DNA from: Chloroflexota bacterium
GTDB lineage: Bacteria > Chloroflexota > Anaerolineae > JACRMK01
DNA length: 64,000 bases
Direction of reading: 5' to 3'
Assembly: GCA_016235055.1 (NCBI GenBank)
Contig: JACRMK010000056.1
Span: 23,359-87,358 of the forward strand
Shown here: positions 6,272-43,604 of the stretch, one piece after another
Numbering within the stretch: the stretch's first letter is position 1
How the letters are laid out: every line of letters begins with the position of its first letter
Notes under the pieces: model-generated
Databases searched by the model: none
What the model was told of the DNA's origin: nothing
Seen by the model: the letters and a program-made list of their open reading frames with translations, nothing else
Program-made: the position numbers and the translations under genes

Positions 6272-6919
6272 TTGATGATCAAGACCATTCTGTTTGACGT
6301 GGACGACACACTGTACCCGCGCTCATCCTCACTGTTCCCGATGATCCGCAACAAGATCATCCAGTACATGATCGACTACCTGGGACTGAGCCGCCCGGAG
6401 GCGATGACGCTTCGCGAACGCTACCTCAAGGAATACGGCACGGCGACGCGCGGCCTGATGATCAACGACCACATCAACGTTCACGAGTACCTCGCCTACG
6501 TCCACGATGTGCCGGTCTCAGAGGCATTGCAACCCGACTCCGAACTCGACGCTATCCTGGGGCAGATCAACGTCGAGAAGTGCCTGTTTACCAACGCCAC
6601 GCGGCAGCACGGTATCAACGTCGTGGAGGCGCTGGGCATCACGCGGCGCTTTACGCGCGTGTTCGGACTGGAAGATTTCAACTATATCAGCAAGCCCGAC
6701 CCGCGCCCCTATCAGGTAGCGCTTGCCACGCTGGGCGTGCCCGGCGCGGAGGTTGCGCTGCTGGAAGACAGCCCGGTCAATCTGGAAGCCGGGCGCGCCG
6801 CCGGCATGACGTCGATTCTGGTTGGCGATGCACCGTACGCCGGCCCGACATTTGACTACCACATCGCGCGCGTGCACGATGTGCTGGCGGTCGCACGCCG
6901 ACTGGGAGTTGCCACATGA
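6272..6919 (+). CDS. HAD-superfamily hydrolase (subfamily IA, nucleotidase-like)
   Basis: Motif I FDVDDTLY and a C-terminal LEDSPVNLEAGRAAGM (motif III/IV). Confidence 0.85.
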   Translation: MMIKTILFDVDDTLYPRSSSLFPMIRNKIIQYMIDYLGLSRPEAMTLRERYLKEYGTATRGLMINDHINVHEYLAYVHDVPVSEALQPDSELDAILGQINVEKCLFTNATRQHGINVVEALGITRRFTRVFGLEDFNYISKPDPRPYQVALATLGVPGAEVALLEDSPVNLEAGRAAGMTSILVGDAPYAGPTFDYHIARVHDVLAVARRLGVAT

Positions 6920-7887
6920 TCAACGCCTACGCTCGCCGGACCGACGCCAACGGGCGCGTGAACGAAGCGCGCGCGGTGCCTGTCGAAGAAGGACTCGCCC
7001 TTCTTTCCGCGCCCGGCGGCCATGTCTGGTTCGACGTGATCGCCGAGTCCGAGGCCGACTTCGCCTGGTTGGAGCAGTCGTTTCATTTCCACCCGCTGAC
7101 CATTGACGACTGCCGCCAGCACGACGCGCGCGCCAAGATCAGCGACTACGACGGGTACCTGTTCATCACGCTGCACACGCCGATCGTCAACGCCGACGAG
7201 ACGACCAGCGACGAAATCCACGTCTTCCTGAGCGAGCGCTATTTCGTCACGGTCCACGACACGCCGAACTCCGTGATCACTGCGCTGGTCGAAATCCAGT
7301 CCAAGAACTTCCAGTTGAGCGAATGGGGCACATCGTTCTTGTTCTACCGGCTCGGCGACCTGGCCGTCGACGCCTACTTCCCGGTCCTCGACGAGGTCGC
7401 CGACCGGGTCGACGATCTCGAAGACCAGATCGTCAATGTCGCGACGCGCGACCAGTTATCCGGCATCTTCACGCTGAAGCGCGACCTCGTCTTCCTGCGC
7501 AAGACGCTCGGACCGATGCGCGAGGTGTTCAACGCATTGCTCATCCGACGCTACCCGCTGATCGATGAGCGATCGCTCGTCTACATGCGCGACGTGTACG
7601 ACCACGTCGTGCGGTTCTACGACATCATCGACACCTACCGCGACCTTGCCAGTTCGGCGCTCGACACCTATCTTTCCAGCGTGTCAAACAATCTGAACGA
7701 CGTGATGAAGCGCCTGACGATCATCACGACCATCTTCATGCCGTTGACCTTTGTGACTGGGTTCTTCGGCATGAACTTCCAGCACCTGCCGTTCGACAGC
7801 GACATCATATTCTGGGTCGCCATGACCACCATGCTGGGCAGCGCCGTTGGAATGCTGATATTCTATCGCCGCAAAGGCTGGCTCTAG
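6916..7887 (+). CDS. corA: magnesium/cobalt transporter CorA
   Basis: C-terminal two TM helices with the signature FMPLTFVTGFFGMNF (GMN motif). 4-nt overlap with the upstream gene. Confidence 0.9.
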   Translation: MINAYARRTDANGRVNEARAVPVEEGLALLSAPGGHVWFDVIAESEADFAWLEQSFHFHPLTIDDCRQHDARAKISDYDGYLFITLHTPIVNADETTSDEIHVFLSERYFVTVHDTPNSVITALVEIQSKNFQLSEWGTSFLFYRLGDLAVDAYFPVLDEVADRVDDLEDQIVNVATRDQLSGIFTLKRDLVFLRKTLGPMREVFNALLIRRYPLIDERSLVYMRDVYDHVVRFYDIIDTYRDLASSALDTYLSSVSNNLNDVMKRLTIITTIFMPLTFVTGFFGMNFQHLPFDSDIIFWVAMTTMLGSAVGMLIFYRRKGWL

Positions 7888-8076
7888 CCACATTCGCCAA
7901 GGGGTATTACGCACAACTGGCGGAATTGTCGCATATCGGCGTCAGCGTAGGGACAGTTCGCGACACCCCAAAGGGTGCGATGCTCGGCCGCCCGGCCCGC
8001 GGGCGCATCGCGATGCGCCCCTACATTGCGCCAAACCGGTGTGCCCGACAGTTTGGCGGCAAAGTCTCGCCAAGTA

Positions 8077-8333
8077 CAGCAATTCTCATTTTGGAGTCGG
8101 CTGCCACTATGCCCCCTCATCCCCTGCCCCTTCTCCCCCGCGGGGGAGAAGGGGAAAAGCTAACGGGGAGGTGCGCGGCGGCTGCGCCGCCGCGTCAATC
8201 CCCTATGAATCTCGCCCCCTCCCAACTTCGTTGGGAGGGGGTCGGGGGGAGGGCAGCGCCACTTCTTCGGCGGGCCAGCGCATCGCGAGCGGCGTTGAAA
8301 AGTACCCGTCCAAAGCCAAATTGAGAATTGCTG
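8077..8333. mobile_element. TIR-bounded palindrome-rich miniature element, copy 1 (257 bp), flanked by a 9-bp direct repeat CGCCAAGTA
   Basis: Termini cagcaattctcattttgg ... ccaaattgagaattgctg are inverted repeats. CGCCAAGTA occurs at 8068-8076 and 8334-8342. The interior has three GC-rich palindromes. Confidence 0.7.
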
Positions 8334-8364
8334 CGCCAAGTAACCGTTTTACGACCTCGGCGTG

Positions 8365-8370
8365 CTATAA
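8365..8370 (+). promoter_or_regulatory. TATAAT -10 box 7 nt upstream of GTG 8378
   Basis: cgtgcTATAATggcgctGTGaagacc. Confidence 0.35.
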
Positions 8371-8377
8371 TGGCGCT

Positions 8378-9736
8378 GTGAAGACCACGCTCATCCGCCA
8401 CGCCCATCTGGTCGCGACGTTTGATGACCGGCGACGCGAGATCCGAGACGGCGCAATCCTCGTGCGCGGCCATCTGATCGAGCAGGTCGGCGCGACGTCT
8501 GAGTTGCCATCCGGGGCCGACGAGACCATCGATGCGCGCGATCATGTCATTATCCCCGGCCTGATCAACTGCCATCACCACCTGTATCAGACGTTGACTC
8601 GCGCGGTGCCCGGCGCGCAGGATGGCACGCTCTTCCAATGGCTGGTCACGCTCTACCCGATCTGGGCCAATCTGACGGCGCAGGCTATCTATATTTCAGC
8701 GCTGACCGGTCTGAGCGAGCTGCTGTTGAGCGGCTGCACGACAGTCGCCGACCACCTCTACATCTACCCGAACGGCGCGCGCATCGACGACGAGATTCGC
8801 GCCGCACAAGAGATCGGCGTGCGCTTCCACCCGACGCGCGGCAGCATGTCGCTAGGCGAATCGCAGGGCGGCCTGCCGCCGGACCGGGTCACTGAGAACG
8901 AAGAGGCGATCCTGCGCGACACGCGCCGGGCCATTGAAGCGTACCACGACCCGGCGCCGTACTCGATGTGCCGCGTTGGCGTGGCGCCGTGCTCGCCGTT
9001 CTCGGTCACGACCGACTTGATGCGCCAGTCGGCGGAACTTGCGCGCGCTTATGGCGTGCGCTGCCACACCCATCTGGCCGAGACCGCCGACGAAGACCAG
9101 TTCTGTCTCGAGAAGTTCGGCCGCCGCCCGCTCGAGTACGCCGAGGATGTCGGCTGGGTCGGCGACGATGTCTGGTACGCTCACGGGGTGTGGTTCGACC
9201 CGGCGGAGATCGGTCGCATCGGCCGGTCGGGCAGCGGCATCGCACACTGCCCCACCTCCAATATGCGCCTCGGGTCCGGCGTCGCGCCGCTGTTGAACTG
9301 GCTATCCCACGGCGTCAAGGTCGGGCTCGGTGTGGATGGCAGCGCCAGCAACGATTCCGGCCATCTGCTGGCCGAAACGCGCCAGGCGATGCTGCTGCAG
9401 CGCGTGACGCATGGCCCGGCCGCGCTGACCGCGCGCCAGGCGCTGGAACTCGGCACGCGCGGCGGCGCGGCGGTGCTCGGCCGCACGGATATCGGCGCGC
9501 TCGCGCCCGGCATGGCGGCCGATCTGGCGATGTTCGACCTGAACCAACTCGCCTATGCCGGCGCATGGCACGACCCGCTGGCCGCGCTCGTCTTCTGCGC
9601 GCCGCAGACCGCCAGCCTGGTGATGGTCAACGGCCGCTTGGTGGTCCGCGAGCAGCATCTCACGACAATTGAACTCGGCCCCGTGATCGAGCAGCACAAC
9701 CGCATTGCGCGGGCCATGGTCGACGGTCCGCGCTAG
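8378..9736 (+). CDS. amidohydrolase-superfamily deaminase, 8-oxoguanine deaminase / SsnA-chlorohydrolase type
   Basis: PGLINCHHHLYQTLTR metal-binding HxH, then HLAET, CHTHLAET and a VGLGVDGSASND aspartate loop. The start is reset to GTG 8378 because the longer ORF 8039.. is translated through the repeat element. Confidence 0.85.
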   Translation: MKTTLIRHAHLVATFDDRRREIRDGAILVRGHLIEQVGATSELPSGADETIDARDHVIIPGLINCHHHLYQTLTRAVPGAQDGTLFQWLVTLYPIWANLTAQAIYISALTGLSELLLSGCTTVADHLYIYPNGARIDDEIRAAQEIGVRFHPTRGSMSLGESQGGLPPDRVTENEEAILRDTRRAIEAYHDPAPYSMCRVGVAPCSPFSVTTDLMRQSAELARAYGVRCHTHLAETADEDQFCLEKFGRRPLEYAEDVGWVGDDVWYAHGVWFDPAEIGRIGRSGSGIAHCPTSNMRLGSGVAPLLNWLSHGVKVGLGVDGSASNDSGHLLAETRQAMLLQRVTHGPAALTARQALELGTRGGAAVLGRTDIGALAPGMAADLAMFDLNQLAYAGAWHDPLAALVFCAPQTASLVMVNGRLVVREQHLTTIELGPVIEQHNRIARAMVDGPR

Positions 9737-9838
9737 ACGGACGAGGAGGCGCACCGACACACCTGTAGCGAAGCCCGCCCACATTGGATTCAACCCGTGT
9801 CAGACTCGGGACACGGTCCCATTCGGAGGAAAACGCCC

Positions 9839-11029
9839 ATGGTTCGCAAGCTGTTTCTAATCAGTGCGCTGCTCGCCCTGCTGCTGCTGGCAGCCTGCAG
9901 CCCGTCGACCCCCACCCCGCCGACGGCGGCCAAGCCGTTCACGTTTGGCGTCGTGCTGGTCGGCCCCAAGGACGACCACGGCTGGAGCGAAGCGCATTAC
10001 AACGCCGGATTGTACCTGGAGAAGAAGCTCCCCGGTTCCAAGATGGTCTGGCTCGACAAGGTGAACCCGGCCGACCGCAAAGGCACCACGCTCGAACAGG
10101 TTATCGATGACATGGTGAAGCAGGGCGCCAAGCTTATCTTCACCACGTCCGACGACTTCAAAGACGATTCCCGCGCGTACGCGCAGAAGCACGCCGACGT
10201 CACGATCATGCACATCTCCGGCGACGACGTGCTGACCAAGAAGAACCCGCCCAACCTCGGCAACTACATGGGCCGCATGGAATACGGCAAGATGATCGCC
10301 GGGTGCGCTGCCGCACTGACCTCGCAGACCGGCAAGATCGGCTACCTCGGCCCCCTCATCAACGACGAAACGCGCCGCCTGGCTGCCTCCGTCTTCCTCG
10401 GCGCCAAGTATTGCTGGACGACCGTGCGCGCCAAGCCGGCCGCCGACCTGAAGTTCGAAGTCCGCTGGATCGGCTTCTGGTTCAATATTCCCGGCGTCAC
10501 ACTCGACCCGACGAAGGTCTCCAACGACTTCTATAATGGCGGCTTCGACGTCGTCCTGAGCGGCATCGACACGACGCAGGCGCTGGTGCAGGCCGGCGAA
10601 GCGGCGAAAGCCGGCAAGAAGGTCTGGGCGATCCCGTACGACTTCAGGGACGCCTGCAACGAAGCCGCCTCAGTCTGCCTCGGCGTGCCTTACTTCAACT
10701 GGGGCCCCGGCTACCTGAAACTGGCCAACGCATACAACGCCAAGACGTGGAAGCCGGAGTTCGAGTGGCTTGCGCCGGACTGGAAGGACATCAACAACGC
10801 CGACACCAGCCCGGTCGGCTGGGTGCCCGGCCCGGCACTCGCCGCCGACAACAAGACGAAGGTGGATGCGTTCATCAAAGGTCTGGCCGATGGCTCGATC
10901 GACCTGTGGAAGGGCGAGCTGAAGTTGCAGGACGGATCGGTCTATCTGAAGGCCGGCGAGAAGGCCACCGACAACCAGATCTGGTTCCTGCCCCAACTGC
11001 TGCAGGGCATGGACGGAGCCAGCAAGTAG
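9839..11029 (+). CDS. BMP-family ABC transporter substrate-binding lipoprotein (nucleoside/purine-binding PnrA-like)
   Basis: Lipoprotein signal MVRKLFLISALLALLLLAAC and BMP-family sequence throughout. Upstream of the ATPase and two permeases. Confidence 0.85.
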   Translation: MVRKLFLISALLALLLLAACSPSTPTPPTAAKPFTFGVVLVGPKDDHGWSEAHYNAGLYLEKKLPGSKMVWLDKVNPADRKGTTLEQVIDDMVKQGAKLIFTTSDDFKDDSRAYAQKHADVTIMHISGDDVLTKKNPPNLGNYMGRMEYGKMIAGCAAALTSQTGKIGYLGPLINDETRRLAASVFLGAKYCWTTVRAKPAADLKFEVRWIGFWFNIPGVTLDPTKVSNDFYNGGFDVVLSGIDTTQALVQAGEAAKAGKKVWAIPYDFRDACNEAASVCLGVPYFNWGPGYLKLANAYNAKTWKPEFEWLAPDWKDINNADTSPVGWVPGPALAADNKTKVDAFIKGLADGSIDLWKGELKLQDGSVYLKAGEKATDNQIWFLPQLLQGMDGASK

Positions 11030-11081
11030 CAGTCTGTCAATCGCCCGGGCGCCGGCAGATCATGCCGGCGCCCGGCGTCAT

Positions 11082-12560
11082 TTGCGACATCGCATGCACC
11101 TCATCCTGCGCGAGATTACGAAGACGTTCGGCCGTGTGCCGGCCAACGATCGCATCTCGTTGACCGTCGAGCCGGGCATCATCCACGGCCTGCTCGGCGA
11201 AAACGGGGCCGGCAAGTCCACCCTGATGAAGGCGCTGTCCGGCTTCATCAGCGCGGACAGCGGCGAGATCGTGCTGGACGGAAAGAGCGTGCGCTTCCGG
11301 TCGCCGCTCGAGGCGCTGGAGCATGGCATCGGCATGCTCCACCAGGACCCGCTGGATTTCCCCACCCTGAGCGTGCTTGAGAACTTCATGCTCGGCATGC
11401 CTGGTACGCTGCCGCCGCGCGCGGCGGCGCTCGCCCAGCTTCTGGACCTATCGCGCCAGTTTGACTTTACCCTGGCCCCGGAGTCACCGGCCGGCGCCTT
11501 AAGCCCCGGCGAGCGTCAACAACTCGAAATCGTGCGCCTGCTCGCACGCGGCGCGGAGTTGCTGATACTTGATGAGCCGACCACCGGCATCTCGCAGGTG
11601 CAGAAGGTCAAGCTCTTTGTGACGCTCCAGAAACTGGCGGCGCAGGGCAAGAGCATTATCCTCGTGACCCACAAGCTCGAAGACGCCGAGACACTGTGCC
11701 AGCGTGTGACCGTGCTGCGCCGCGGCCGGGTCGTCGGCGAGGTCGAGCGACCGTTCACCACTCAGAAACTGGTCCAGCTCATGTTCGGCCAGGAACTGCC
11801 ACGCCTGGAGCGCCCGGCCCTATCGGCCACACAAACGACCGTGACCGTCCGGGACCTGGCGGTACACGATCACCGCATGGCGGTGGAAGCGGTCAACCTG
11901 GAGATCATGGCCGGCGAGGTCATCGGGCTGGCCGGACTGGAAGGTAGCGGGCAGCGGCTGGTCATGCGCGCGCTCGGCGGCCTGCTGACGCCTTCGCACG
12001 GCGAGATCAGCGTCGGTGGGCAGTCGCTGGCCGGCAAACCGTACAGCCAGTTTCTGCGTACCGGCGTTGCGTACTTGCCGGCCGGGCGGATGGATGAAGG
12101 GCTTGTGCCGGGCCTCAATCTAACGGAGCATTTTGAACTGGCGCGCCGCAGCCACGACTTCACCGTGGACTGGAAACGCGCGGAAGCGCTGGCCGCCGAG
12201 CGAATCGACATGTTTAGCATTCGCGGCCGCCCCGCAACCGCAGTCGATGACCTTTCGGGCGGCAACCAGCAGCGCGCTCTGCTCGCGCTGCTGCCGGAGC
12301 AACTTTCACTGCTGTTGCTGGAGCACCCGACGCGCGGACTCGACATCGAATCGTCGGCCTGGGTCTGGACGCAACTGCTGGAACGCAGACGGCACGGCAC
12401 GGCCATCATCTTCATCTCCGCCGACCTCGACGAGATTCTGGCTTACAGCGACCGCATCGTCGTCTTCTCCGGCGGCCAGGTCAGCGCGCCGCTCGCCGCC
12501 CGCGACGCGACCGTCGAGCAACTCGGCAACCTGATCGGCGGCAAGCGCGCCCAGGGCTGA
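11082..12560 (+). CDS. ABC transporter ATP-binding protein with duplicated ATPase domains
   Basis: Two Walker A sites (GENGAGKST and GLEGSGQ), two LSGG signature motifs and Walker B sites. Confidence 0.9.
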   Translation: MRHRMHLILREITKTFGRVPANDRISLTVEPGIIHGLLGENGAGKSTLMKALSGFISADSGEIVLDGKSVRFRSPLEALEHGIGMLHQDPLDFPTLSVLENFMLGMPGTLPPRAAALAQLLDLSRQFDFTLAPESPAGALSPGERQQLEIVRLLARGAELLILDEPTTGISQVQKVKLFVTLQKLAAQGKSIILVTHKLEDAETLCQRVTVLRRGRVVGEVERPFTTQKLVQLMFGQELPRLERPALSATQTTVTVRDLAVHDHRMAVEAVNLEIMAGEVIGLAGLEGSGQRLVMRALGGLLTPSHGEISVGGQSLAGKPYSQFLRTGVAYLPAGRMDEGLVPGLNLTEHFELARRSHDFTVDWKRAEALAAERIDMFSIRGRPATAVDDLSGGNQQRALLALLPEQLSLLLLEHPTRGLDIESSAWVWTQLLERRRHGTAIIFISADLDEILAYSDRIVVFSGGQVSAPLAARDATVEQLGNLIGGKRAQG

Positions 12561-12567
12561 TAGCAAC

Positions 12568-13626
12568 ATGACCACATCCGTCCCGCGCAGGTCAGTAACG
12601 CGCGTCGCTCGCCGGCTGATGCCGGCGCTGCAGCCTGTCGCACTGGCGCTGATCGTCACGCTCGTGATCATTGTACTGGTCGGCGCGTCGCCGCTCGCCG
12701 TGCTGGCCGGCATGTGGGACGGCGCGTTCGGCGATGCCGACCGGCAGGCCGATGTGCTGGCCGCCTGGGTGCCGCTGACGCTCGCCACCGTCGGACTGCT
12801 CGTTACTTTCACTGCCGGCCTGTGGAACATCGGTATCGAGGGGCAGATCACGCTCGGTGCGATTGGCGCCACCTTCGTCGTGCGCACGCTACCGGACCTG
12901 CCGGCGCCGCTGCTCCTGTCGCTCGTCCTGCTGAGCGCGGCCGTTGCCGGCGGACTGTGGGGATTGATCGTCGGAGCGCTAAAAACGTACGGCAAGGTAC
13001 ATGAGATCTTCGGTGGGATGGGGCTCAACTTCGTGGCCATCGGCCTCACAAACTACCTGATCTTCGGGCCGTGGAAGCAGGCCGGTCGCGCGTCGGCCAG
13101 CGGCACGGAACCATACCCGCTGAACGCCTATCTACCGACGCTGGAGGGGCTGCGCCTCAGCCCGTATGCGCTCGGGCTGGCCATTGTCGCGCTTTTGATA
13201 GTGTACGTGGCGCTGCGCGGAACCACCTGGGGTCTGCAACTCAAAGCGATCGGCAAGAGCTTGCGCGCCGCGCACTGGCTCGGTATCGCCACCGAGCGGC
13301 AGATACTGCTGGCGTTCGTTGTGGCGGGCGCATGCGCCGGTCTCGCCGGTGCTGTGCAGACCACTGTGACGTATCACCGCCTCATCCCGTCCATCAGCAG
13401 CGGCTACGGATATCTGGCCATCCTGGTCGCGCTGCTGGCCGGGTTCCGCGCTCTGTGGGTCGCCCCACTAGCGTTCTTCTTCGCAGCGCTCAGCCTGGGT
13501 AGCCGCACGCTGCAGATGCAGTTGCAACTCGACTCGTCGCTCGGCGGCGTCATCCAGGGCGTGCTGGTGCTGATCGTCGTGCTCGCGCGCGGCCTCGGCA
13601 CGCGCAGCGGCAATACGGAGACCTAG
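12568..13626 (+). CDS. ABC transporter permease (BMP-system, first permease)
   Basis: Multi-TM ORF immediately after the ATPase, a typical BMP-ABC operon order. Confidence 0.85.
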   Translation: MTTSVPRRSVTRVARRLMPALQPVALALIVTLVIIVLVGASPLAVLAGMWDGAFGDADRQADVLAAWVPLTLATVGLLVTFTAGLWNIGIEGQITLGAIGATFVVRTLPDLPAPLLLSLVLLSAAVAGGLWGLIVGALKTYGKVHEIFGGMGLNFVAIGLTNYLIFGPWKQAGRASASGTEPYPLNAYLPTLEGLRLSPYALGLAIVALLIVYVALRGTTWGLQLKAIGKSLRAAHWLGIATERQILLAFVVAGACAGLAGAVQTTVTYHRLIPSISSGYGYLAILVALLAGFRALWVAPLAFFFAALSLGSRTLQMQLQLDSSLGGVIQGVLVLIVVLARGLGTRSGNTET

Positions 13627-13629
13627 CGC

Positions 13630-14598
13630 ATGGACATCGTCATCCGCCTGCTGGCCTCTATCCTGGCCGATTCCGCGCCGCTCGTCTTCGCGGCGGTCGG
13701 CGAGACGATCACCGAGAAGGCCGGCGTCATCAACCTGTCGCTCGACGGCTCGCTGATGCTGGCCGCGATGGCCGGCTTCGCCGTGGCGTACAGCACCGGC
13801 AGCGTGGCCGCCGGATTCCTGGCGGCGATGGCGGTCGGCGCGCTCGTCGCGCTGCTCATCGCGTACGCGGGTATTGCGCTCAATCGCGACCAGGTGGCCG
13901 TCGGGTTCATCCTGACTGTGCTCTGCACCGATCTCAGTTCGTTCCTCGGCACGCCGTTTGTGCGCAAGCCGATCATCACTGCGTTGCCCGCGCCCATCCC
14001 GTTCCTGAGCGACATCCCGGTGCTCGGCACGCTCTTCTTCAACCACAGCGTCACGGTGTACGCCAGCTTCGCCGTCGTGCTGCTCGCCTGGCTGTTCATG
14101 TTCAAGACGCAGCCCGGCCTCATGCTGCAGGGCATCGGCGAGCGCCCGGCGGCGGCCTTCGCACGCGGCGCAAACGTCAACCGCCTGCGCTACCTCTATA
14201 CGCTGATTGGCGGCGCCCTGGTCGGCGTGGCCGGCGCGGCGTTCTCGCTGGGCGCCAGCCCCGGCTGGAGCTACCATCACACGCAGGGCTTCGGCTGGAT
14301 CGCGCTGTCGATCGTCATCTTTGGCGGCTGGCACCCGTTCCGCGCCGCCTTCGGCGCATACCTGTTCGGCGGGCTGCAAACACTCGGCAGCGTGCTGCAG
14401 GCCGGCATGCCCGACATGCCGATCTACGTCTTCCAGGTCGCGCCGTTCCTGATGATGATCCTCGTCCTGCTCGCAGCCAACAGCGAGGGACTCGACCGCC
14501 TGATGGCCTACCTGCCTGCCGGGTTCGCGCGCTGGCTCACGCGCATGCTGCGCGGGCAGTCGCCCGCCGCATTAGGCGCCAACTTCCATTCGGAGTAA
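13630..14598 (+). CDS. ABC transporter permease (BMP-system, second permease)
   Basis: Multi-TM ORF 4 nt after the preceding permease. Confidence 0.85.
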   Translation: MDIVIRLLASILADSAPLVFAAVGETITEKAGVINLSLDGSLMLAAMAGFAVAYSTGSVAAGFLAAMAVGALVALLIAYAGIALNRDQVAVGFILTVLCTDLSSFLGTPFVRKPIITALPAPIPFLSDIPVLGTLFFNHSVTVYASFAVVLLAWLFMFKTQPGLMLQGIGERPAAAFARGANVNRLRYLYTLIGGALVGVAGAAFSLGASPGWSYHHTQGFGWIALSIVIFGGWHPFRAAFGAYLFGGLQTLGSVLQAGMPDMPIYVFQVAPFLMMILVLLAANSEGLDRLMAYLPAGFARWLTRMLRGQSPAALGANFHSE

Positions 14599-14660
14599 AA
14601 TGGTTTGCCGTTGGCGCGCATGTTGGCGCGCCGGCGCCCATCCCGCCAAACGAACCGCGC

Positions 14661-15209
14661 ATGCCCAAAGTCTATCTCATCCGCAACGCCGAGACGCAGG
14701 CAACTCATGAGGACCCCGCCTTCTGGCCGCTGTCGGATCGCGGCGAGGAGCAGGCGCGCATGATCGCGCGGCTGCCTTTTTGGGACGCAGTCACGGCGAT
14801 CGTCAGCAGCGACGAAAGCAGCGCGCTCGCCACCGTCAGCCAGATTGTGTTTGACCGCCGCCTCCCGCTGTTTCACGATGTGCGCCTGCGCGAACTGAAA
14901 CGCACCAGCGAGCACCTGGAAGACCCCGAGTCGCGCGTGCTCGAAGTCATGCAGAAACCGGCGCTCAGCATCGGCGGTTGGGAGCGCGCCACCGATGCGC
15001 AGACGCGCGCAACGGCGTGCTTCCAGGAACTCGTCGACCGCTACGGCGAGGCGACGTTTGCCGTCGTCTCGCACGGCATGACGCTGGCGCTGCTGCTCGG
15101 CGTGCTGCAGGAATCGGTCGGCTACGCGTTCGATATCTGGCAATCGCTCGGCCACGGAAGCGTCGTGCTCGTCGAGCGCGATGACGCGCCGGCCCTTCCC
15201 GCCACATAA
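14661..15209 (+). CDS. histidine phosphatase family protein (phosphoglycerate-mutase-like)
   Basis: N-terminal LIRNAET.....LSD.GEEQA (an RHG-type motif with N replacing H) and the overall length. Confidence 0.7.
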   Translation: MPKVYLIRNAETQATHEDPAFWPLSDRGEEQARMIARLPFWDAVTAIVSSDESSALATVSQIVFDRRLPLFHDVRLRELKRTSEHLEDPESRVLEVMQKPALSIGGWERATDAQTRATACFQELVDRYGEATFAVVSHGMTLALLLGVLQESVGYAFDIWQSLGHGSVVLVERDDAPALPAT

Positions 15210-15227
15210 CAAGGATCCCGCCAAGCT

Positions 15228-16319
15228 ATGCAGATCGGCATCATTGGCCTGCCCACGTCGGGCAAGACCACCATTTTCAATGCGCTAACGCGCGGCAACA
15301 TCGCCCCGGCGGCCTACTCGTCCGGCAAGTTCGAAGTGCACACCGGCGTCGTCGACGTGCCGGACGACCGGCTTGGCGTGCTGGCGCAGATGTTCAACCC
15401 GCGCAAGGTGACGCACGCGAAGGTGCAGTATAACGATGTGGCCGGCCTCGCGCGCGGCGCCGGCGAGAAAGGCGGGCTGGAGCCGGCGCTCCTCAACCTG
15501 CTCTCGCAGAGCGACGCGCTGATTCTGGTCATCCGCGCTTTTGACGACCCGAACGTGCCGCACCCGGACGGCAGCGTGGACCCGGCGCGCGACCTGAATG
15601 CGCTGGAGACCGAATTACTGCTGGCCGACCTGATGGCGGTCGAAAAGCGCCTGCAGCGACTGAAGGAAGACGCCGGCAAGCGCGGCGGCACGCCGCAGGA
15701 GAAGGAAATGCGCGTGCGCGAGGTCGCCCTCTTCGAGCGCATGCAGACTCACCTCGAAGGCGAGCGGCGCCTCAACACGCTCGGCATGAATGAAGATGAA
15801 GTCAAATCGGTGCGCGGCTTTGGCCTGCTGACCGTCAAACCGACGATGGTCATCTACAATCTGGCGGAGTCGCAGTCGCCCCAGGCCGAGTGGGAACGGC
15901 GCGACGGCGACCAGGGCACCATCCACACGGCACTGCGCGGCAAGCTGGAAATGGAAATCGCGCAGATGGCGCCCGACGATGCGCGCGAGTTTCTTGCTGA
16001 GTACGGCATTACCGAGCCCGGCCTGAACCGCATCATCCGGCTCTCGTACGACCTGCTCGGCCTGCATTCGTTCCTGACGACCGGCGAAGACGAGGTGCGC
16101 GCCTGGACGGTCCGCAAAGGCGCGACAGCGGTCGAAGCCGCCGGCACCATTCACAGCGACCTGGCGCGCGGCTTCATTCGCGCCGAAGTCATCGCGTATG
16201 CCGACCTGATCGACGCGGGCGGATTCGCCGAAGCGCGCAAGCGCGGCACGCTGCGGCTCGAGGGCAAAACGTACGTGGTCAGCGATGGCGACATCGTCCA
16301 CGTCAAGTTCAACGTGTAG
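15228..16319 (+). CDS. ychF: redox-regulated ATPase YchF (Obg-family GTPase)
   Basis: GIIGLPTSGKTTIFNALT G1 motif, 363 aa with a C-terminal TGS domain. Confidence 0.9.
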   Translation: MQIGIIGLPTSGKTTIFNALTRGNIAPAAYSSGKFEVHTGVVDVPDDRLGVLAQMFNPRKVTHAKVQYNDVAGLARGAGEKGGLEPALLNLLSQSDALILVIRAFDDPNVPHPDGSVDPARDLNALETELLLADLMAVEKRLQRLKEDAGKRGGTPQEKEMRVREVALFERMQTHLEGERRLNTLGMNEDEVKSVRGFGLLTVKPTMVIYNLAESQSPQAEWERRDGDQGTIHTALRGKLEMEIAQMAPDDAREFLAEYGITEPGLNRIIRLSYDLLGLHSFLTTGEDEVRAWTVRKGATAVEAAGTIHSDLARGFIRAEVIAYADLIDAGGFAEARKRGTLRLEGKTYVVSDGDIVHVKFNV

Positions 16320-16344
16320 CACGACAGAGCACAGGAGCGAGACC

Positions 16345-17421
16345 ATGAAGGCCGCCGTCTTGCGCGCGCCCAATGCGCCGCTGACCATCGAGCAGGTCGA
16401 TCTGGACACTAATCTGCTAACCGGCGAGGTGCTGGTGCGGATTACGCACGCCGGCGTCTGCCACAGCGACTACCACATCATGATCGGCGAGACGCCGCAC
16501 CCAATGCCGGTGGTGCTCGGGCACGAGGGCGCGGGCATCGTGGAGGCCGTCGGGCCGGGCGTTAGCCGCCTGCACAAGGGCGATCCGGTCGCCGTGACGT
16601 TCCGCCCATTCTGCGGCTACTGCCGGCAGTGCAACAGCGGCCATCCGAACCTGTGCGACAACGTCGAAGTGCTGCGCCGCGCCTGCCGCCTCAGTCAGCA
16701 CGGCGAGCGCGTGTACAACTTCATCGGCGTGTCGTGCTTCGCCGAGTACACGGTCGTGCACGAATCCGCCGCCATCAAGGTGCCGTCCGACGTGCCGCTC
16801 GACCGCGCCGCGCTCGTCTCATGCGGCGTGATGACCGGCGTCGGCGCCGTCATCAACACGGCGAAGGTTTCGCCGGGCGAGACGGTGGCTGTGATCGGTT
16901 GCGGCGGCGTCGGGCTGAATGTGATTCAGGGCGCGCGGCTGGCCAACGCCTCCGTCATCATCGCGGTCGACATTCACGACAACAAGCTGGAGATGGCGAC
17001 CACGTTCGGCGCGACACATCTGATCAACGGCCGGTCCGAAGACGCGATCAAGAAAGTGCGCGAGCTTGTCAAGGGCGGTGTGGACTGGTCATTCGAGGTC
17101 ATCGGCCTGCCGGCGACCATGGAACAGGCGTACGCTATGATCCGCAAAGGCGGCACGGCCGTCATGGTTGGCATGCCGCCGTCGGCCAGCAAGGTTTCGT
17201 TCCCGGCGTTCTCCTTTTTTGCCGAGGAGAAGACAGTCAAAGGCTCCATGTTCGGCAGCGCGCGTCCCAGCATCGACATCCCGCGTGTCCTCGATCTGTA
17301 CAAGCATCACCAATTGCAGCTAGACGAGTTGATCTCGCGTCACTACCCGCTTGAGCGTATCAACGAAGCGTACGAGGCACTGGCGCGCGGCGAAGTGGCC
17401 CGCAGCGTCATCGATCTCTAG
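16345..17421 (+). CDS. zinc-dependent alcohol dehydrogenase family protein
   Basis: GVCHSDYH and GHEGAG zinc motifs, and GCGGVG Rossmann. The start is reset to the MKAAVL ATG. Confidence 0.85.
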   Translation: MKAAVLRAPNAPLTIEQVDLDTNLLTGEVLVRITHAGVCHSDYHIMIGETPHPMPVVLGHEGAGIVEAVGPGVSRLHKGDPVAVTFRPFCGYCRQCNSGHPNLCDNVEVLRRACRLSQHGERVYNFIGVSCFAEYTVVHESAAIKVPSDVPLDRAALVSCGVMTGVGAVINTAKVSPGETVAVIGCGGVGLNVIQGARLANASVIIAVDIHDNKLEMATTFGATHLINGRSEDAIKKVRELVKGGVDWSFEVIGLPATMEQAYAMIRKGGTAVMVGMPPSASKVSFPAFSFFAEEKTVKGSMFGSARPSIDIPRVLDLYKHHQLQLDELISRHYPLERINEAYEALARGEVARSVIDL

Positions 17422-17442
17422 CCCCTGTCGGATTGAAACGCC

Positions 17443-18675
17443 ATGAGCCCTGACATCACCCAAGAAATCCGGTCGCTCGTCGCCCAGCGGCGCGACTCGA
17501 TGATCCGGTTCTTCCGCGATATCTGCGCGATTCCGTCGTACGACTCGCAGATCGGCCCCGTGGGCGAGCGCGTCGGCCAGGAGATGCGCGCCCTCGGCTT
17601 CGACGAGGTGCGCTTCGACAAGATGGGCAATATCCTGGGCCGCATCGGCAACGGGCCGCGCTGCCTGGTGTATGATTCGCACATCGACACCGTCGGCGTC
17701 GGCGATCCGGCCGCCTGGGAGTGGGATCCGTTCAAGGGCAAGGTTGAAAACGGCATTCTCTTCGCGCGCGGGGCATGCGACGAAAAAGGCTCGACGCCCG
17801 GCATGATCTACGGCCTGGCGCTCGCCCGACAGCTCGGTCTGCTGCACGGCTGGACCGCGTACTACTTCGGCAATATGGAAGAGTGGTGCGACGGCATCGC
17901 CCCCAACTCGTTCGTTGAGGTGGACCCAAGGGTACGCCCCGATTTCGTCGTCATCGGCGAGCCGACCAAGATGCAGGTCTATCGCGGGCACAAAGGGCGC
18001 ATCGAGTTGCAGATCACGGCCAGCGGCAAATCGGCTCATGCCGCGCACCATCACCTGGGTGACAACGCGGTGTACAAGATGCTGGACATCATCGCGGGCA
18101 TCCGCGATCTCGACGCGCAGCTGCCGAGCGACCCGTTCCTGGGCAAGGCAACCGTGGTTGTCACCGATGCTGAGGTGCACACGCCGTCCATCAACGCCGT
18201 GCCAGACCTGTTCAGTATCTTCATCGACCGCCGCATTACGTTCGGCGAGACGCGCAAAGGCATCGTGGAGCGCATCCAGGCACTGATTCCGGCTGAACTG
18301 CGCGGCGAGATCACGCTCAAAGAGATGTTCTACGACACGCCGAGCTACACCGGCTTCGTCTTCCCGATCGAAAAGTACTATCCGCCCTGGGCGCTCGATG
18401 AGACGCATCCCCTGGTGCGCGCCGGGCAACGCACGATGGCGCGTCTGTGGGGCGAAGCGCCGCCCACGGGCAAATGGGGCTTCTCGACCAACGGCACCTA
18501 CTGGGCGGGGAAGGCGCAGATACCGTCGATCGGCTTCGGGCCCGGCGACGAGGTCCACGCGCACACCACGCTGGACCAGAACAAGCTCGACGATGTGGTG
18601 CGCGCCACCGAATGGTACGCGCTTTTTCCGACCGTGTTGGCGCAACTTACCGCCGCCGTTACGCCGGAGTTCTAG
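17443..18675 (+). CDS. M20-family peptidase, YgeY-like
   Basis: HIDTV, ARGACDEKG and EPT...GHKG motifs, 410 aa. Confidence 0.85.
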   Translation: MSPDITQEIRSLVAQRRDSMIRFFRDICAIPSYDSQIGPVGERVGQEMRALGFDEVRFDKMGNILGRIGNGPRCLVYDSHIDTVGVGDPAAWEWDPFKGKVENGILFARGACDEKGSTPGMIYGLALARQLGLLHGWTAYYFGNMEEWCDGIAPNSFVEVDPRVRPDFVVIGEPTKMQVYRGHKGRIELQITASGKSAHAAHHHLGDNAVYKMLDIIAGIRDLDAQLPSDPFLGKATVVVTDAEVHTPSINAVPDLFSIFIDRRITFGETRKGIVERIQALIPAELRGEITLKEMFYDTPSYTGFVFPIEKYYPPWALDETHPLVRAGQRTMARLWGEAPPTGKWGFSTNGTYWAGKAQIPSIGFGPGDEVHAHTTLDQNKLDDVVRATEWYALFPTVLAQLTAAVTPEF

Positions 18676-18688
18676 CCGCTCGTTGTAC

Positions 18689-18719
18689 GCCCCGCACCGT
18701 GCCGGTGCGGGGCTTTTTT
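18689..18719 (+). terminator. Rho-independent terminator (11-bp GC stem + T6)
   Basis: gccccgcaccg-tgc-cggtgcggggc-tttttt, 14 nt after the peptidase stop. Confidence 0.7.
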
Positions 18720-18746
18720 GTTGCCCGCAAGCCGGGCCTCTGCATG

Positions 18747-19034
18747 CAGCAATTCTCAATTTGGCTTTGTACGGGTACTTTCCAATGCCGCTTGCGATGC
18801 GCTGGCTCTCAGGCGCTTGTCACGCAAGCTGGCCCGCCGAAAAAGTGGCGTTGCCCTCCCCCCGACCCCCTCCCAACTTCGTTGGGAGGGGGCGAGATTC
18901 TTCGGGGATTGGCGCGGCGGCGTAGCCGCCGCGCCAATCCCCGTTAGCTTTTCCCCTTCTCCCCCGCGCGCGGGGGAGAAGGGGCAGGGGATGAGGGGGC
19001 ATATTGGCAGCCGACTCCAAAATGAGAATTGCTG
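18747..19034. mobile_element. TIR-bounded palindrome-rich miniature element, copy 2 (288 bp, opposite orientation to copies 1 and 3), flanked by a 9-bp direct repeat CTCTGCATG
   Basis: CTCTGCATG occurs at 18738-18746 and 19035-19043. TIR cagcaattctcaatttgg ... caaaatgagaattgctg. Confidence 0.7.
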
Positions 19035-19146
19035 CTCTGCATGCGAGCGCCGCGACCGCACGGTGGTATCATATATCCAGGAAGAGTGCGTGCGGCTTCT
19101 CACCGATTGCCGTCGGGCACGGACACAGTGAGCCCGAAAGGAGGCC

Positions 19147-20106
19147 ATGATGCGGAGTTTTCTGGGCCGCGACATCCTGTCGCTGAAGGATTTCGAACGT
19201 GACGATTTCACGCGTGTCTTTCAAGTCGCCAAAGACCTCGAGCCGATTGCGCGCGACCGGCGCAACAGCGACCTGCTGGCGGCCAAGACGCTCGTGACGG
19301 CATTCTACCAGCCGAGTACCCGCACCCGGCTGGCGCATGAGGCGGCCATGCACCGGCTCGGCGGCCACGTGGTCGGGTTTGCCGACTTCAAGATGACGCG
19401 CGCCGGCGACTGGTATCAGGAATCAATCAAGGATACCGTTCGCATGCTCGAGTATTACGGTGACGCAATCGTCATGCGCCATTTCCTGCAGGGCGCGCCC
19501 GCCGAGGCTGCGCGCTGGGCCAGCGTTCCGGTGATCAATGCAGGCGACGGTTGGGGCGAGCACCCCACACAGGTGCTGACCGACTTGTACACTGTGCGCG
19601 AGGAGCGCGGCCGCATCGACGGCCTGACGTTCCTCTGCATCGGCGATATGCGCATGCGGACGATGCACTCCCTCTCGTATGCGCTCACCCAGTTTGATTG
19701 CCAGGCGATCTACGTCGCGCCGCCCGACATGTCGCTGACGGACGAGTTCAAGGCCGAGTTGCGCGAGCGCAACCTGCGTTTCCGCGAGGCAGAGCATGTC
19801 GCACAAGTGATCGATCAGGCCGACGTGATCTACATGGAGCCGGTCATCCAGGCCGACTACACGCAATCGCGCGTCGAGCACGCGTCCGAGCGGCCGCATA
19901 CGCCGGATAACTATGTCGTCAGCCGCGAACTCCTGCGTGACAAGGCGCGCTCCGATGCCATCATCCTGCACTCCCTGCCGCGCATGGACGAGTTGCCCGC
20001 CGACGTGGATGGTACCCGCCATGCGCGCTACTGGCAGGAAGCGTTCAATGGCGTTGTCGTGCGCATGGCGCTGCTGGCCTTGATCCTTGGCGCGGCTGAG
20101 CGGTAA
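19147..20106 (+). CDS. aspartate/ornithine carbamoyltransferase family protein (divergent, PyrB-like)
   Basis: The STRTR carbamoyl-phosphate motif and HPTQ are present. The C-terminal motif is LHSLP rather than the canonical HPLP/HCLP, and the 80s-loop region is atypical. Confidence 0.8.
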   Translation: MMRSFLGRDILSLKDFERDDFTRVFQVAKDLEPIARDRRNSDLLAAKTLVTAFYQPSTRTRLAHEAAMHRLGGHVVGFADFKMTRAGDWYQESIKDTVRMLEYYGDAIVMRHFLQGAPAEAARWASVPVINAGDGWGEHPTQVLTDLYTVREERGRIDGLTFLCIGDMRMRTMHSLSYALTQFDCQAIYVAPPDMSLTDEFKAELRERNLRFREAEHVAQVIDQADVIYMEPVIQADYTQSRVEHASERPHTPDNYVVSRELLRDKARSDAIILHSLPRMDELPADVDGTRHARYWQEAFNGVVVRMALLALILGAAER

Positions 20107-20121
20107 TCCGCGGCGAGCGTA

Positions 20122-20235
20122 GCGCATATCCCGTCGATCGGCTTCGGTCCGGGCGACGAGGTCTACGCGCATACCACGCTCGACCAGATCAGCCTCGACG
20201 ATGTCGTGCGCGCAACCGAGTGGTATGCGCTCTTG
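20122..20235 (+). pseudogene. orphan duplicated 3' fragment of the M20 peptidase gene (about 85% nt identity to 18517-18630)
   Basis: Encodes ..IPSIGFGPGDEVYAHTTLDQISLDDVVRATEWYAL, compared with IPSIGFGPGDEVHAHTTLDQNKLDDVVRATEWYAL at the peptidase C-terminus. It has no start codon or upstream body. Confidence 0.55.
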
Positions 20236-20449
20236 TCCGCGCTGCTCGCGCACCACATGGCTGCAACCTCGCCCACGCCGCAACACCGCAAAGATCAGGC
20301 CGGAGTTCAATGCTCACCAAAGGCGCCCAGATGCGGGCGCCTTTGTCTTTTGTGCCTGCGCCCCATGCCAATTTACCCTTCACAGGGAGTGACATTCGCC
20401 CCTTCCGCCGCACGGCAGCTTCGAGTAAACTAAGGAGCGCGCATCGTTC

Positions 20450-21187
20450 ATGCGCTCTCGGAGGCCAGCAATGAATCACCGGCGTCAAAGCAAACCGGCA
20501 GTGGACGCACACCGCAACCATTCGCGCCTTTCGGAAGTGATACTCGGCGGGCAGGACGGACTGGTCAACGTGCTCGGCGTCATTCTGGGCGTCGCCGCGG
20601 CGACCAGCGACACGTCCATTGTGCTCGTCGCCGGGCTGGCCGCCACCTTCGCCGAATCGGTGTCGATGGGCGCGGTGGCGTACACCTCGACGCTGGCCGA
20701 CGCGGAGCTGTACGAAAGCGAACGGCAGCGCGAATTCCGGCATATTACTGCGCAGCCGGATCGCGAGCGAGACGAAATCCGCCAGATCTACGCGCAGAAG
20801 GGTTTTAGCGGCGATCTGCTTGAGCGGATCGTGAACACGATCACGGCCAGTCCGGACGTCTGGGTGGCCGTCATGATGGCTGAGGAGATGCGCCTGATGC
20901 CGTCGGATCGCGGCCACGCACTACGCTCGGCGTTCGTCGTCGGCTTCGCCGCGATTGTCGGCTCGCTGATCCCGCTGGCGCCCTACATCTGGCTTCCGGT
21001 CGGCACCAGCATGCTGCTGTCGCTCATCATCGCTGCCCTGACGCTATTTGTGGTCGGTGCCTACAAAGCGCGCACGACCGTCGGGCACCCGGGGCGCAGC
21101 GGGCTGGAAATGGCCCTGATCGGCACGCTCAGTGCGCTGGCCGGCTATCTGGCTGGCGTGATCTTCAAAGTACCGGCGGCGCCATAA
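20450..21187 (+). CDS. VIT1/CCC1 family iron/manganese transporter
   Basis: ILGGQDGLVNVLGVILGVAAA plus a C-terminal TM cluster. A possible shorter start at MNHRR (20471). Confidence 0.85.
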   Translation: MRSRRPAMNHRRQSKPAVDAHRNHSRLSEVILGGQDGLVNVLGVILGVAAATSDTSIVLVAGLAATFAESVSMGAVAYTSTLADAELYESERQREFRHITAQPDRERDEIRQIYAQKGFSGDLLERIVNTITASPDVWVAVMMAEEMRLMPSDRGHALRSAFVVGFAAIVGSLIPLAPYIWLPVGTSMLLSLIIAALTLFVVGAYKARTTVGHPGRSGLEMALIGTLSALAGYLAGVIFKVPAAP

Positions 21188-28800: not shown

Positions 28801-29027
28801 TGGCACTGCTACGCACAATCTGGGACAAATGGCGCGCGTTCGGCCACTGGATGGCCGACGTGGTCGGCCGAGTGGTCATGACTATCTTCTATTTCACGCT
28901 GGCCGCCCCGTTCGGCATTGGCGTACGGCTGTTCAGCGATCCACTGCACCTGAAGCCCGAAACGCCGCAATGGAATCCCCGCGAGCCGGTTTCCGAAGCG
29001 TTGGACGATGCGCGGAGGTCATTCTAG
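28801..29027 (+). CDS. small membrane protein (75 aa) immediately upstream of the O-carbamoyltransferase (SxtJ-like position)
   Basis: MALLRTIWDKWRAFGHWMADVVGRVVMTIFYFTLAAPFGIGV... The true start is internal to ORF 28686..29027. Confidence 0.45.
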
Positions 29028-29028
29028 C

Positions 29029-31039: not shown

Positions 31040-32162
<1,123 letters not shown>

Positions 32163-43600: not shown

Positions 43601-43604
43601 ACCG

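Follow-up and report, generated by a model that had tools for sequence, protein, structure and literature searches.

A pseudo-aspartate carbamoyltransferase beside YgeY in a Chloroflexota genome: a probable catabolic enzyme of anaerobic purine degradation

Introduction

What does a protein annotated as aspartate carbamoyltransferase (ATCase) do if its aspartate site is lost and its gene lies among genes for the use of purines? This question is raised by a 64,000-nucleotide stretch of DNA from a Chloroflexota bacterium (contig JACRMK010000056.1; about 65% G+C), which we call the window. Positions 8378 to 20106 of the window encode, among others, a deaminase of the 8-oxoguanine type, a BMP-family ABC importer, a hydrolase of the YgeY family, and an ATCase-like protein of 319 amino acids. 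A preliminary description, made from the sequence, read these genes as an island for the catabolism of purines or nucleosides. Our analysis suggests that the ATCase-like protein is probably a catabolic carbamoyltransferase of anaerobic purine degradation, in a variant of the reductive urate pathway.

In that pathway, the route from urate to 2,3-diureidopropionate runs through XdhD, a ring reductase, SsnA, and HyuA. YgeW phosphorolyses one of the two ureido groups, and the carbamate kinase YqeA makes ATP; YgeY hydrolyses the other ureido group, and YgeX splits diaminopropionate into pyruvate and ammonia (PMC12507026; bioRxiv 10.1101/2025.04.24.650524). An ATCase-like enzyme is mentioned in neither of these two studies from 2025. 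One of them, by Li et al., noted SsnA clusters in Chloroflexota and counted any PF00185 protein as “YgeW.”

ATCase-like proteins with altered active sites were described in 2013 by Barba et al., who called them pseudo-ATCases (PMC4016543). By their definition, these proteins keep the STRT and HPTQ motifs, have an altered HPLP motif, and have lost RxQ (R230-Q232). They lie at the root of the group ATC II, and their nearest authentic relative is the ATCase of Pyrococcus abyssi. One subgroup is a catabolic ureidoglycine carbamoyltransferase whose gene adjoins that of carbamate kinase, and Rxyl_2847 from Rubrobacter xylanophilus is the only pseudo-ATCase whose activity has experimental support in that study. 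The genes of subgroup 2 (Nocardioides sp. JS614) adjoin a ygeW homolog, xdhABC, and hyuA; no functions were given for subgroups 2 and 3 (PMC4016543). A literature search turned up no later paper on pseudo-ATCases.

Results

The second-substrate site is remodeled

We identified the window's genes by searching its proteins against NCBIfam and Pfam profiles, and the ten genes named in the preliminary description are all present as described, on the plus strand. By overall similarity, the carbamoyltransferase resembles an ATCase. It scores 260.3 bits with TIGR00670, the ATCase model (cut-off 236.95). Its best solved relatives are all ATCases, with the P. abyssi enzyme (PDB 1ml4) first at 250 bits in phmmer and E. 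coli PyrB at 204 bits, and public records label it aspartate carbamoyltransferase. These observations would suit a housekeeping PyrB with unusual but tolerated motif variants. However, the score with NF002032 (230.5 bits) is under the cut-off of 263, and the active site also argues against a PyrB.

To compare the active site, we collected relatives by scanning one genome per GTDB species, which gave at least 589 matches to the family among the matches listed. The best 80 of these, which are 74–83% identical to the window's protein, were used for all comparisons of loci, and together with the window's protein they form an alignment of 81 sequences. Residues are numbered as in E. coli PyrB; we verified that the reference is identical to 1q95_A. 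The carbamoyl-phosphate site is intact: S52, T53, R54, T55, R105, H134, and Q137 are invariant in all 81 sequences, as is R167, and the window's protein keeps STRTR, R105/H106, and HPTQ. Other positions are replaced just as consistently. In 81 of 81 sequences S80 has become R, K83/K84 has become D-(W/F)-Y, G166 is deleted, and P266 has become S, and HPLP (H265-P268) reads HSLP throughout. In canonical enzymes the 80s loop contributes S80 and K84 from the adjacent chain, while in this family the loop has the invariant motif TRAGD(W/F)YQES.

The RxQ motif is also gone. A profile-profile alignment (hhalign) of the family against 31 canonical ATCases, with a probability of 100% and 38% identity, sets the canonical TRVQKER opposite EPV(V/I)Q(P/A)D, which replaces R229 with P and Q231 with V or I. 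All 31 canonical representatives have S80, K84, R229, and Q231. Both phmmer and L-INS-i (100 sequences) give the same register as hhalign, and we preferred it to the one from MAFFT --auto, run with a single outgroup (E. coli PyrB), which places an 8-residue insertion before T-(K/Q)-S-R; RxQ is absent in that register too. The aberrant motifs that had been pointed out in the 319-residue protein are therefore real, including the change of K84 to Y. Compared with authentic ATC II enzymes (P. abyssi 1ml4 and E. coli 1q95), the window's protein has the same fold and length and the same carbamoyl-phosphate site, but it differs at these positions, has about seven extra residues in the 240s region, and has no pyr genes around it.

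These changes do not look like decay. The window's copy deviates at just 4 of 182 positions that are conserved in the family (range within the family, 0–10), and because of this we consider it, from its sequence, to be an intact gene under constraint with a remodeled second-substrate site. Its start is probably the second ATG, at 19150, because the spacing from an AGGAGG fits and because the identical protein on public record (P0001), from a Chloroflexi metagenome-assembled genome, has the resulting length of 318 amino acids.

The protein is a pseudo-ATCase outside the canonical PyrB group

The preliminary description drew an analogy to E. coli, where ygeW and ygeY are neighbors. This analogy holds insofar as YgeY adjoins a carbamoyltransferase here as well. 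The transferase itself is not an ortholog of YgeW: the YgeW models TIGR03316 and NF005538 give 22.4 and 28.9 bits (cut-offs of 500 and 453), and only the N-terminal 100 residues match. By sequence, it is a pseudo-ATCase derived from ATC II.

We placed the protein in a neighbor-joining tree of 102 sequences (200 bootstraps) in which canonical and pseudo sequences were classified by the alignment columns of K84, R229, and Q231. (Sorting by regular expressions was discarded, as it mis-assigned several sequences and left the test of monophyly meaningless.) A split in the tree separates all 53 canonical ATCases, with K84, R229, and Q231, from 38 of the 39 proteins that lack K84 and R229 and from the OTC-like outgroup. 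The family is monophyletic in 200 of 200 bootstraps and lies within a clade free of canonical enzymes in 145 of 200. The tree thus gives moderate support for placing the window's protein outside the canonical PyrB group, and this placement, which the preliminary description had proposed as a check, does not put it among bona fide PyrB.

The family shares the defining traits of the pseudo-ATCases of Barba et al.: the members are annotated as ATCases, have STRT and HPTQ, have H[ST]LP in place of HPLP, have lost RxQ, and have the P. abyssi enzyme as nearest authentic relative. We therefore assign the protein by sequence to this assemblage, as a previously uncharacterized member. The assignment to a subgroup is mixed. 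HSLP fits subgroups 2 and 3. At the position of RxQ, Barba et al. reported AIA/AIS/SIA, GX[SC], or VXP, and P-V-(V/I) in the hhalign register fits none of these, although a shift of two residues would give V-Q-P (VXP, subgroup 3). The genomic context fits subgroup 2, whose neighbors (a ygeW homolog, xdhABC, and hyuA) are those of the loci related to the window; subgroup 3 differs in context, with a Na+ symporter and asparaginase.

When we searched 1.84 billion representative proteins (clustered at 50% identity) with HMMER, the family collapsed into two full-length representatives at 72–74% identity, and the next full-length sequences were at most 48% identical. Many of these more distant relatives have an 80s loop of the TRAGD type and no RxQ; they form a large and diverse assemblage.

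Related genes lie in a conserved operon with a second transferase and carbamate kinase

The 80 related genes come from Anaerolineae, Acidimicrobiia, and single metagenome-assembled genomes of Verrucomicrobia, Spirochaetota, Planctomycetota, Thermotogota, and Zixibacteria, as well as from the cultured Thermanaerothrix solaris. Identities of 74–83% are found across metagenome-assembled genomes assigned to at least seven phyla, to a large extent perhaps through horizontal transfer or mis-binning.

We counted neighbors within 10 kb of the family gene, after clustering the flanking proteins de novo and annotating the recurrent families. For 42 of the 80 loci, the contig extends at least 8 kb on either side, and we refer to these as fully flanked. 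The recurrent order is (FolD), PRK08203-type amidohydrolase, adenine deaminase, GntR/UTRA regulator, pseudo-ATCase, second carbamoyltransferase, carbamate kinase, BMP-ABC importer, ThrC-like pyridoxal phosphate (PLP) enzyme, and further genes. In the fully flanked loci, the second transferase is present in 41 of 42, on the same strand and with a median gap of 76 bp downstream of the pseudo-ATCase, and carbamate kinase in 38 of 42 (59 of 80 overall). The amidohydrolase and the ThrC-like enzyme are each found in 31, the GntR regulator in 30, adenine deaminase in 24, and the BMP binding protein in 21. Less frequent are the molybdenum subunit of xanthine dehydrogenase (XDH; 8 of 42, with XDH in 13 of 80 and the FAD subunit also in this subset), YgeY (6 of 42), D-hydantoinase (5 of 42; 7 of 80), and SsnA (4 of 42; 7 of 80). 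Every one of the 42 loci has at least one of these neighbors. The operon's adenine deaminase passes its equivalog cut-off (504 versus 472), and the only neighbor that resembles a dihydroorotase passes the D-hydantoinase equivalog instead (543 versus a cut-off of 393).

The second transferase (326 amino acids; L025:11035-12015 in one of these loci) has orthologs in 67 of the 80 loci, with a median identity between genomes of 82%. It contains FSSTRTR (STRT), HPFQ, HPLPA, and KSWG and scores under every NCBIfam cut-off: 257 versus 306 for OTC, 249 versus 288 for AOTC, and 197 versus 453 for YgeW. On these scores it appears to be another uncharacterized transferase subfamily.

Two side observations concern the PLP enzymes of these operons. 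A GT2-like gene (285 bits with the PgfS model, below cut-off) lies inside the purine operon, between two PLP-enzyme genes, at L025:19416-20381, at L007:14369-15325, and in about 20 other loci. Also, a recurrent CysK-like PLP enzyme of about 500 amino acids has a long N-terminal extension.

No pyrimidine gene is among the annotated recurrent neighbor families of the 80 loci (pyrI was not explicitly searched for); a nearby pyrC or pyrI was among the signs of a housekeeping ATCase that the preliminary description had named. This, and the regular presence of carbamate kinase and a second transferase, is not what would be expected around a housekeeping PyrB. Nor is 74–83% identity across phyla typical of a vertically inherited housekeeping enzyme; the canonical representatives are 38–54% identical to E. 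coli PyrB. Furthermore, authentic ATCases coexisted with pseudo-ATCases in organisms studied by Barba et al. (PMC4016543). Given these results, the invariant replacements in the active site, and the tree, it is hardly credible that the protein is a PyrB with tolerated variants. Its function is very probably not the carbamoylation of aspartate in pyrimidine synthesis, as judged from its sequence and context. The earlier proposal of a non-canonical ATCase-family enzyme that serves purine catabolism instead is supported by synteny in 80 species, loss of the aspartate site, and position in the tree.

Seven of the ten genes of the window's block belong to this association. Orthologs of the amidohydrolase are found in 44 of the 80 loci, those of the BMP protein, ABC ATPase, permease 1, and permease 2 in 35, 35, 34, and 33, and those of YgeY in 12, usually 60–300 bp upstream of the family gene. 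The other three, which the preliminary description had included in its purine island, are bystanders, because they are never syntenic: histidine phosphatase and YchF have no ortholog in any of the 80 loci, and the Zn-dependent alcohol dehydrogenase is matched by paralogs of 28% identity in two.

The predicted substrates of the conserved proteins are purine bases. The amidohydrolase resembles solved 8-oxoguanine deaminases (PDB 3hpa, 612 bits; 7ww2, 595 bits), and its equivalog score and this similarity make it a predicted 8-oxoguanine deaminase. The only solved relatives of the BMP protein bind purine bases: 3s99, with adenine modeled, and AtzT (6pi5), with guanine, which AtzT binds with a dissociation constant of 0.11 uM (PMC6834077). 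Because these relatives bind adenine and guanine, the importer probably takes up purine bases rather than the nucleosides named in the preliminary description.

A probable role in anaerobic purine degradation

We think it likely, by analogy with the reductive urate pathway, that the pseudo-ATCase is a catabolic carbamoyltransferase of anaerobic purine degradation. It would act on a ureido compound and phosphate to give an amine and carbamoyl phosphate, which carbamate kinase would convert to ATP. The BMP-ABC system would import purine bases, and the PRK08203-type amidohydrolase would deaminate a guanine-type base on the way to urate. The pseudo-ATCase and YgeY would then strip the two ureido groups from a C3 intermediate, namely 2,3-diureidopropionate and its mono-ureido product. 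In the window, and at the related locus L001, the pseudo-ATCase would do the work that falls to YgeW in E. coli, alongside YgeY as the hydrolase. Where the standard operon is present, its two transferases might between them conserve both ureido groups in the form of ATP. Ring reduction and opening, the kinase, and the lyase would, for the window's genome, be encoded elsewhere.

As the substrate, the 2-ureido (alpha-N-carbamoyl) group carried by 2,3-diureidopropionate or by 2-ureido-3-aminopropionate is the best candidate. Both compounds are analogs of carbamoyl-aspartate in which a nitrogen substituent replaces the beta-carboxylate. With such a substituent, it would make sense that the cationic R229 and K84 are gone and that invariant acidic and aromatic residues have appeared.

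The comparison with the cluster xdhD-ygfK-ssnA-hyuA-ygeW-yqeA-ygeY-ygeX of E. coli and Clostridium shows both the resemblance and its limits. Shared features are the YgeY ortholog, a carbamoyltransferase coupled to carbamate kinase (that is, ureido removal with substrate-level ATP formation), and, in related loci, SsnA, D-hydantoinase, XDH, and fold-type-II PLP enzymes. The adjacent genes for de-ureidation, YgeY followed by the pseudo-ATCase, are found in the window and in 12 of the 80 loci. The differences are that the transferase is the knotted YgeW there and derives from ATC II here; that the relatives mostly have two transferases in tandem, with purine deaminases, a GntR regulator, and the BMP-ABC importer built in and with no YgeX ortholog; and that the window's set comprises no more than YgeY, the transferase, the deaminase, and the importer. 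The pathways of arginine and agmatine deiminase also combine phosphorolysis of a ureido group, by a catabolic ornithine or putrescine carbamoyltransferase, with carbamate kinase, but those transferases are from another clade and their substrates have another source.

Some pseudo-ATCases serve a different route of purine catabolism, so the family might instead be a ureidoglycine carbamoyltransferase like Rxyl_2847 (which converts allantoate and Pi to ureidoglycine and carbamoyl phosphate) within the oxidative route through uricase and allantoin. Rxyl_2847 is in the same assemblage, is catabolic, and likewise lies beside carbamate kinase among genes for purine degradation; XDH, which is present in 13 of the 80 loci, would suit this route as well. 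But Rxyl_2847 has HPLA and AIA-type motifs, as expected for subgroup 1 (AIA, AIS, or SIA), where the family has HSLP and P-V-(V/I), and its context includes uricase and allantoinase. No allantoinase, uricase, or 5-hydroxyisourate hydrolase turned up among the conserved neighbors of the family, whose SsnA, D-hydantoinase, YgeY, and YgeW-like transferase are marks of the reductive route. Carriers of the family are mostly strict anaerobes (Anaerolineae), which also counts against an oxidative route. We consider this alternative quite improbable.

Another alternative is that the enzyme cleaves some other N-carbamoyl amino acid: N-carbamoyl-threonine or N-carbamoyl-glycine, released from the modified nucleoside N6-threonylcarbamoyladenosine (t6A) by the adenine-deaminase-type hydrolase, or the product of a hydantoinase. 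This would match the modified-base route that the preliminary description offered as an option. The loss of R229 and K84 would be consistent with an alpha-N-carbamoyl amino acid that has no beta-carboxylate. In the standard operon, the enzyme's partners do include a hydrolase of the adenine deaminase family, a BMP importer, and ThrC/IlvA-like PLP enzymes, and most loci have no XDH, SsnA, or hydantoinase within 10 kb. Direct support is lacking, and the adenine deaminase passes its own equivalog cut-off, as noted above. Also, this alternative leaves the need for two transferases unexplained, and in several phyla the gene lies with those for XDH, SsnA, hydantoinase, and YgeY, which favors the urate route. 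It therefore seems rather unlikely to us.

Several observations weigh against a role of the pseudo-ATCase in a reductive urate pathway. First, TIGR00670 does score the protein above its cut-off. Second, the PLP enzymes of the clusters are similar to ThrC, IlvA, or CysK and are not YgeX orthologs. Third, most Anaerolineae loci have neither SsnA nor hydantoinase nor XDH within 10 kb, and the link to 2,8-dioxopurines comes from a minority of the loci, together with the deaminase and YgeY as partners. Fourth, several loci carry YgeY as well as both transferases, which makes three de-ureidating enzymes for two ureido groups; a simple model does not explain this. Fifth, in the window itself, a terminator separates the pseudo-ATCase gene from ygeY, and carbamate kinase, the second transferase, the GntR regulator, adenine deaminase, a PLP lyase, hydantoinase, SsnA, and XDH are not detectable in the 64 kb. 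Finally, the family's substrate and direction are read from genomic context.

More tentatively, the family may have a new activity: a carbamoyltransferase for 2-ureido C3 acids that acts in tandem with a YgeW-like transferase in Chloroflexota and Actinomycetota, with both ureido groups ending up as carbamoyl phosphate. If this is true, the route with two transferases doubles the substrate-level ATP yield of anaerobic urate degradation relative to E. coli, in which YgeY hydrolyses one of the groups. The pseudo-ATCase assemblage itself was known, but a two-transferase variant of the anaerobic urate cluster is hitherto undescribed.

The annotation of these proteins has consequences beyond this locus. 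The matches listed include at least 589 genomic ones among GTDB species representatives, plus many metagenomic copies; many of these proteins are labeled aspartate carbamoyltransferase, although very probably they form no carbamoyl-aspartate. A metabolic reconstruction of Anaerolineae or Acidimicrobiia in which the family counts as pyrB would over-call pyrimidine synthesis and miss a module for purine fermentation. Tandem carbamoyltransferases with carbamate kinase point to an energy-conserving life on the purine bases of dead biomass, and the groups that carry them dominate anaerobic digesters and sediments. Our proposal would also link the puzzle of the pseudo-ATCases, from 2013, to the urate pathway that was solved in 2025. 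For the window itself the message is more modest.

The window holds a rearranged fragment of the operon

The window has only a rearranged and partial fragment of the operon, not a complete island (Table 1). Besides the genes listed above, none of the markers of the reductive urate cluster (XDH of the XdhD type; a ring reductase of the YgfK, UacX, or F420 type; SsnA; HyuA; carbamate kinase; diaminopropionate ammonia-lyase) was found within the 64 kb, and a D-hydantoinase query (dihydroorotase-like) had no match there. A gap of just 60 bp separates the amidohydrolase and BMP genes, where other genomes have five genes in between. The ygeY and pseudo-ATCase genes are 471 bp apart, of which 290 bp is a repeat element.

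This element resembles a miniature inverted-repeat transposable element (MITE). Its terminal inverted repeats, 19 bp long, read GCAGCAATTCTCA(A/T)TTTGG; there are six matches to the repeat ends in the window versus 0.01 expected by chance, and the copies are 83–95% identical. Two copies in opposite orientation bracket the gene block 8378-18675. The element has no match in Rfam, and across the 80 related loci there was a single weak match of 60 nt. Just downstream of the pseudo-ATCase is a remnant of a second ygeY, its last 54 codons, which has 72% amino acid identity to residues 355–408 of the window's YgeY and 87% nucleotide identity to 18514-18623. The remnant appears to be the scar of a deletion or rearrangement, which may have removed the second carbamoyltransferase; at 54 residues it is too short to be assigned to the “upstream-type” or “downstream-type” YgeY.

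The preliminary description called the locus co-directional. The genes do share a strand, but so do about 35 consecutive genes from 2438 to 43600, interrupted only by two doubtful antisense open reading frames (ORFs; 14508-15224 and 31057-31533), so the shared strand of the ten genes is not distinctive, and we dropped it as evidence for an operon. The cumulative GC skew falls steadily across most of the window. Nor is 8378-20106 a single operon, because a terminator and a repeat element lie between ygeY and the carbamoyltransferase. The two terminator-like hairpins, both strong, put the pseudo-ATCase in its own transcription unit. A scan for sigma-70 promoters found none upstream of the pseudo-ATCase and one site in the region versus 1.6 expected, but such a scan is uninformative for Chloroflexi. 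No riboswitch or other RNA family was found by an Rfam scan of 7800-20500.

Do the rearrangements mean that the window's pseudo-ATCase is an orphaned leftover of a broken operon, outside any working pathway? The absence from the 64 kb of the second transferase and the kinase, which nearly always accompany the gene elsewhere, would be explained, as would the ygeY remnant 7 nt past the stop codon, the MITE-like element and terminator in front of the gene, and the joining of the amidohydrolase and BMP genes. On the other hand, the gene has an undamaged ORF and a good Shine-Dalgarno sequence, and its deviations at conserved positions are within the family's range. Among the fully flanked relatives, L001 alone has this minimal pair of YgeY and pseudo-ATCase, with neither kinase nor second transferase; genes for XDH subunits follow directly, which suggests that the pair is a viable variant. 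Also, the kinase may be encoded elsewhere in the genome, as it is in some gut strains. We regard a leftover as improbable and prefer a putative catabolic enzyme with an intact gene, whose YgeY partner would act on the same pathway intermediates.

Table 1. Genes, repeats, and terminator-like hairpins of the window's purine locus.
Feature	Positions	Strand	Evidence or remarks
PRK08203-type “8-oxoguanine deaminase” amidohydrolase	8378-9736	+	NF006055 702 bits (cut-off 532)
BMP-family substrate-binding protein	9797-11029	+	Pfam Bmp 49 bits
ABC ATPase, two fused ABC domains	11082-12560	+	two ABC_tran stretches; 55% identical to the ATPase of the L025 operon
ABC permease 1	12568-13626	+	BPD_transp_2
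ABC permease 2	13630-14598	+	BPD_transp_2
Histidine phosphatase	14661-15209	+	His_Phos_1 58 bits
YchF ATPase	15228-16319	+	TIGR00092 310 bits (cut-off 279)
Zn-dependent alcohol dehydrogenase	16285-17421	+	ADH_N and ADH_zinc_N; every NCBIfam equivalog under cut-off
YgeY-family M20 hydrolase	17443-18675	+	TIGR03526 465 bits (cut-off 321.5); NF009555 426 bits (cut-off 321)
Intrinsic-terminator-like hairpin and T-run	18689-18713	+	directly 3' of ygeY; 11-bp stem with 10 GC pairs, then TTTTTTGTTG
MITE-like element, about 290 bp	18746-19035	+	19-bp terminal inverted repeats; three internal perfect GC-rich hairpins
Pseudo-ATCase (ATC/OTC fold)	19147-20106	+	319 amino acids from the ORF start
ygeY 3' remnant	20113-20274	+	last 54 codons of a second copy; starts 7 nt past the pseudo-ATCase stop
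Intrinsic-terminator-like hairpin	20318-20345	+	ends the pseudo-ATCase unit; 11-bp stem, then TCTTTTGT
MITE-like element, second copy	8076-8334	-	just upstream of the amidohydrolase gene; 83% identical to 18746-19035 over 289 nt
MITE-like element, copy	43604-43893	-	
MITE-like element, partial copy	59250-59399		

Other genes and gene starts

Some gene boundaries need correction. The first 35 nt of the alcohol dehydrogenase ORF lie within the end of ychF, and its profile alignments all begin at residue 21; the gene probably starts near 16345, about 20 codons downstream of the ORF start. A 565-amino-acid ORF from 8039 is an over-extended version of the amidohydrolase, whose true start is 8378. 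A 132-amino-acid ORF at 7926-8324 has no family match, lies nearly entirely within a copy of the repeat element, and is probably not a gene.

The block is flanked by unrelated housekeeping and envelope genes. Upstream are genes for MutL, an SDR protein, a protein similar to dihydrodipicolinate synthase, EamA, a nucleotidase-type HAD protein, and CorA; downstream are VIT1, Usp, and a block for glycan synthesis. The HAD phosphatase (6272-6919), of the pyrimidine-5'-nucleotidase type (TIGR01993, 160 bits; cut-off 143), is about 1.5 kb upstream of the deaminase and is syntenic in 0 of the 80 loci. The glycan block includes a GHMP kinase, an acetyltransferase, GT2, a B12-radical SAM protein, and an O-antigen ligase around an O-carbamoyltransferase of the NodU/CmcH type (Carbam_trans_N/C) at 29008-30831. 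This enzyme is a second consumer of carbamoyl phosphate in the window, with a fold unrelated to that of the ATC/OTC family.

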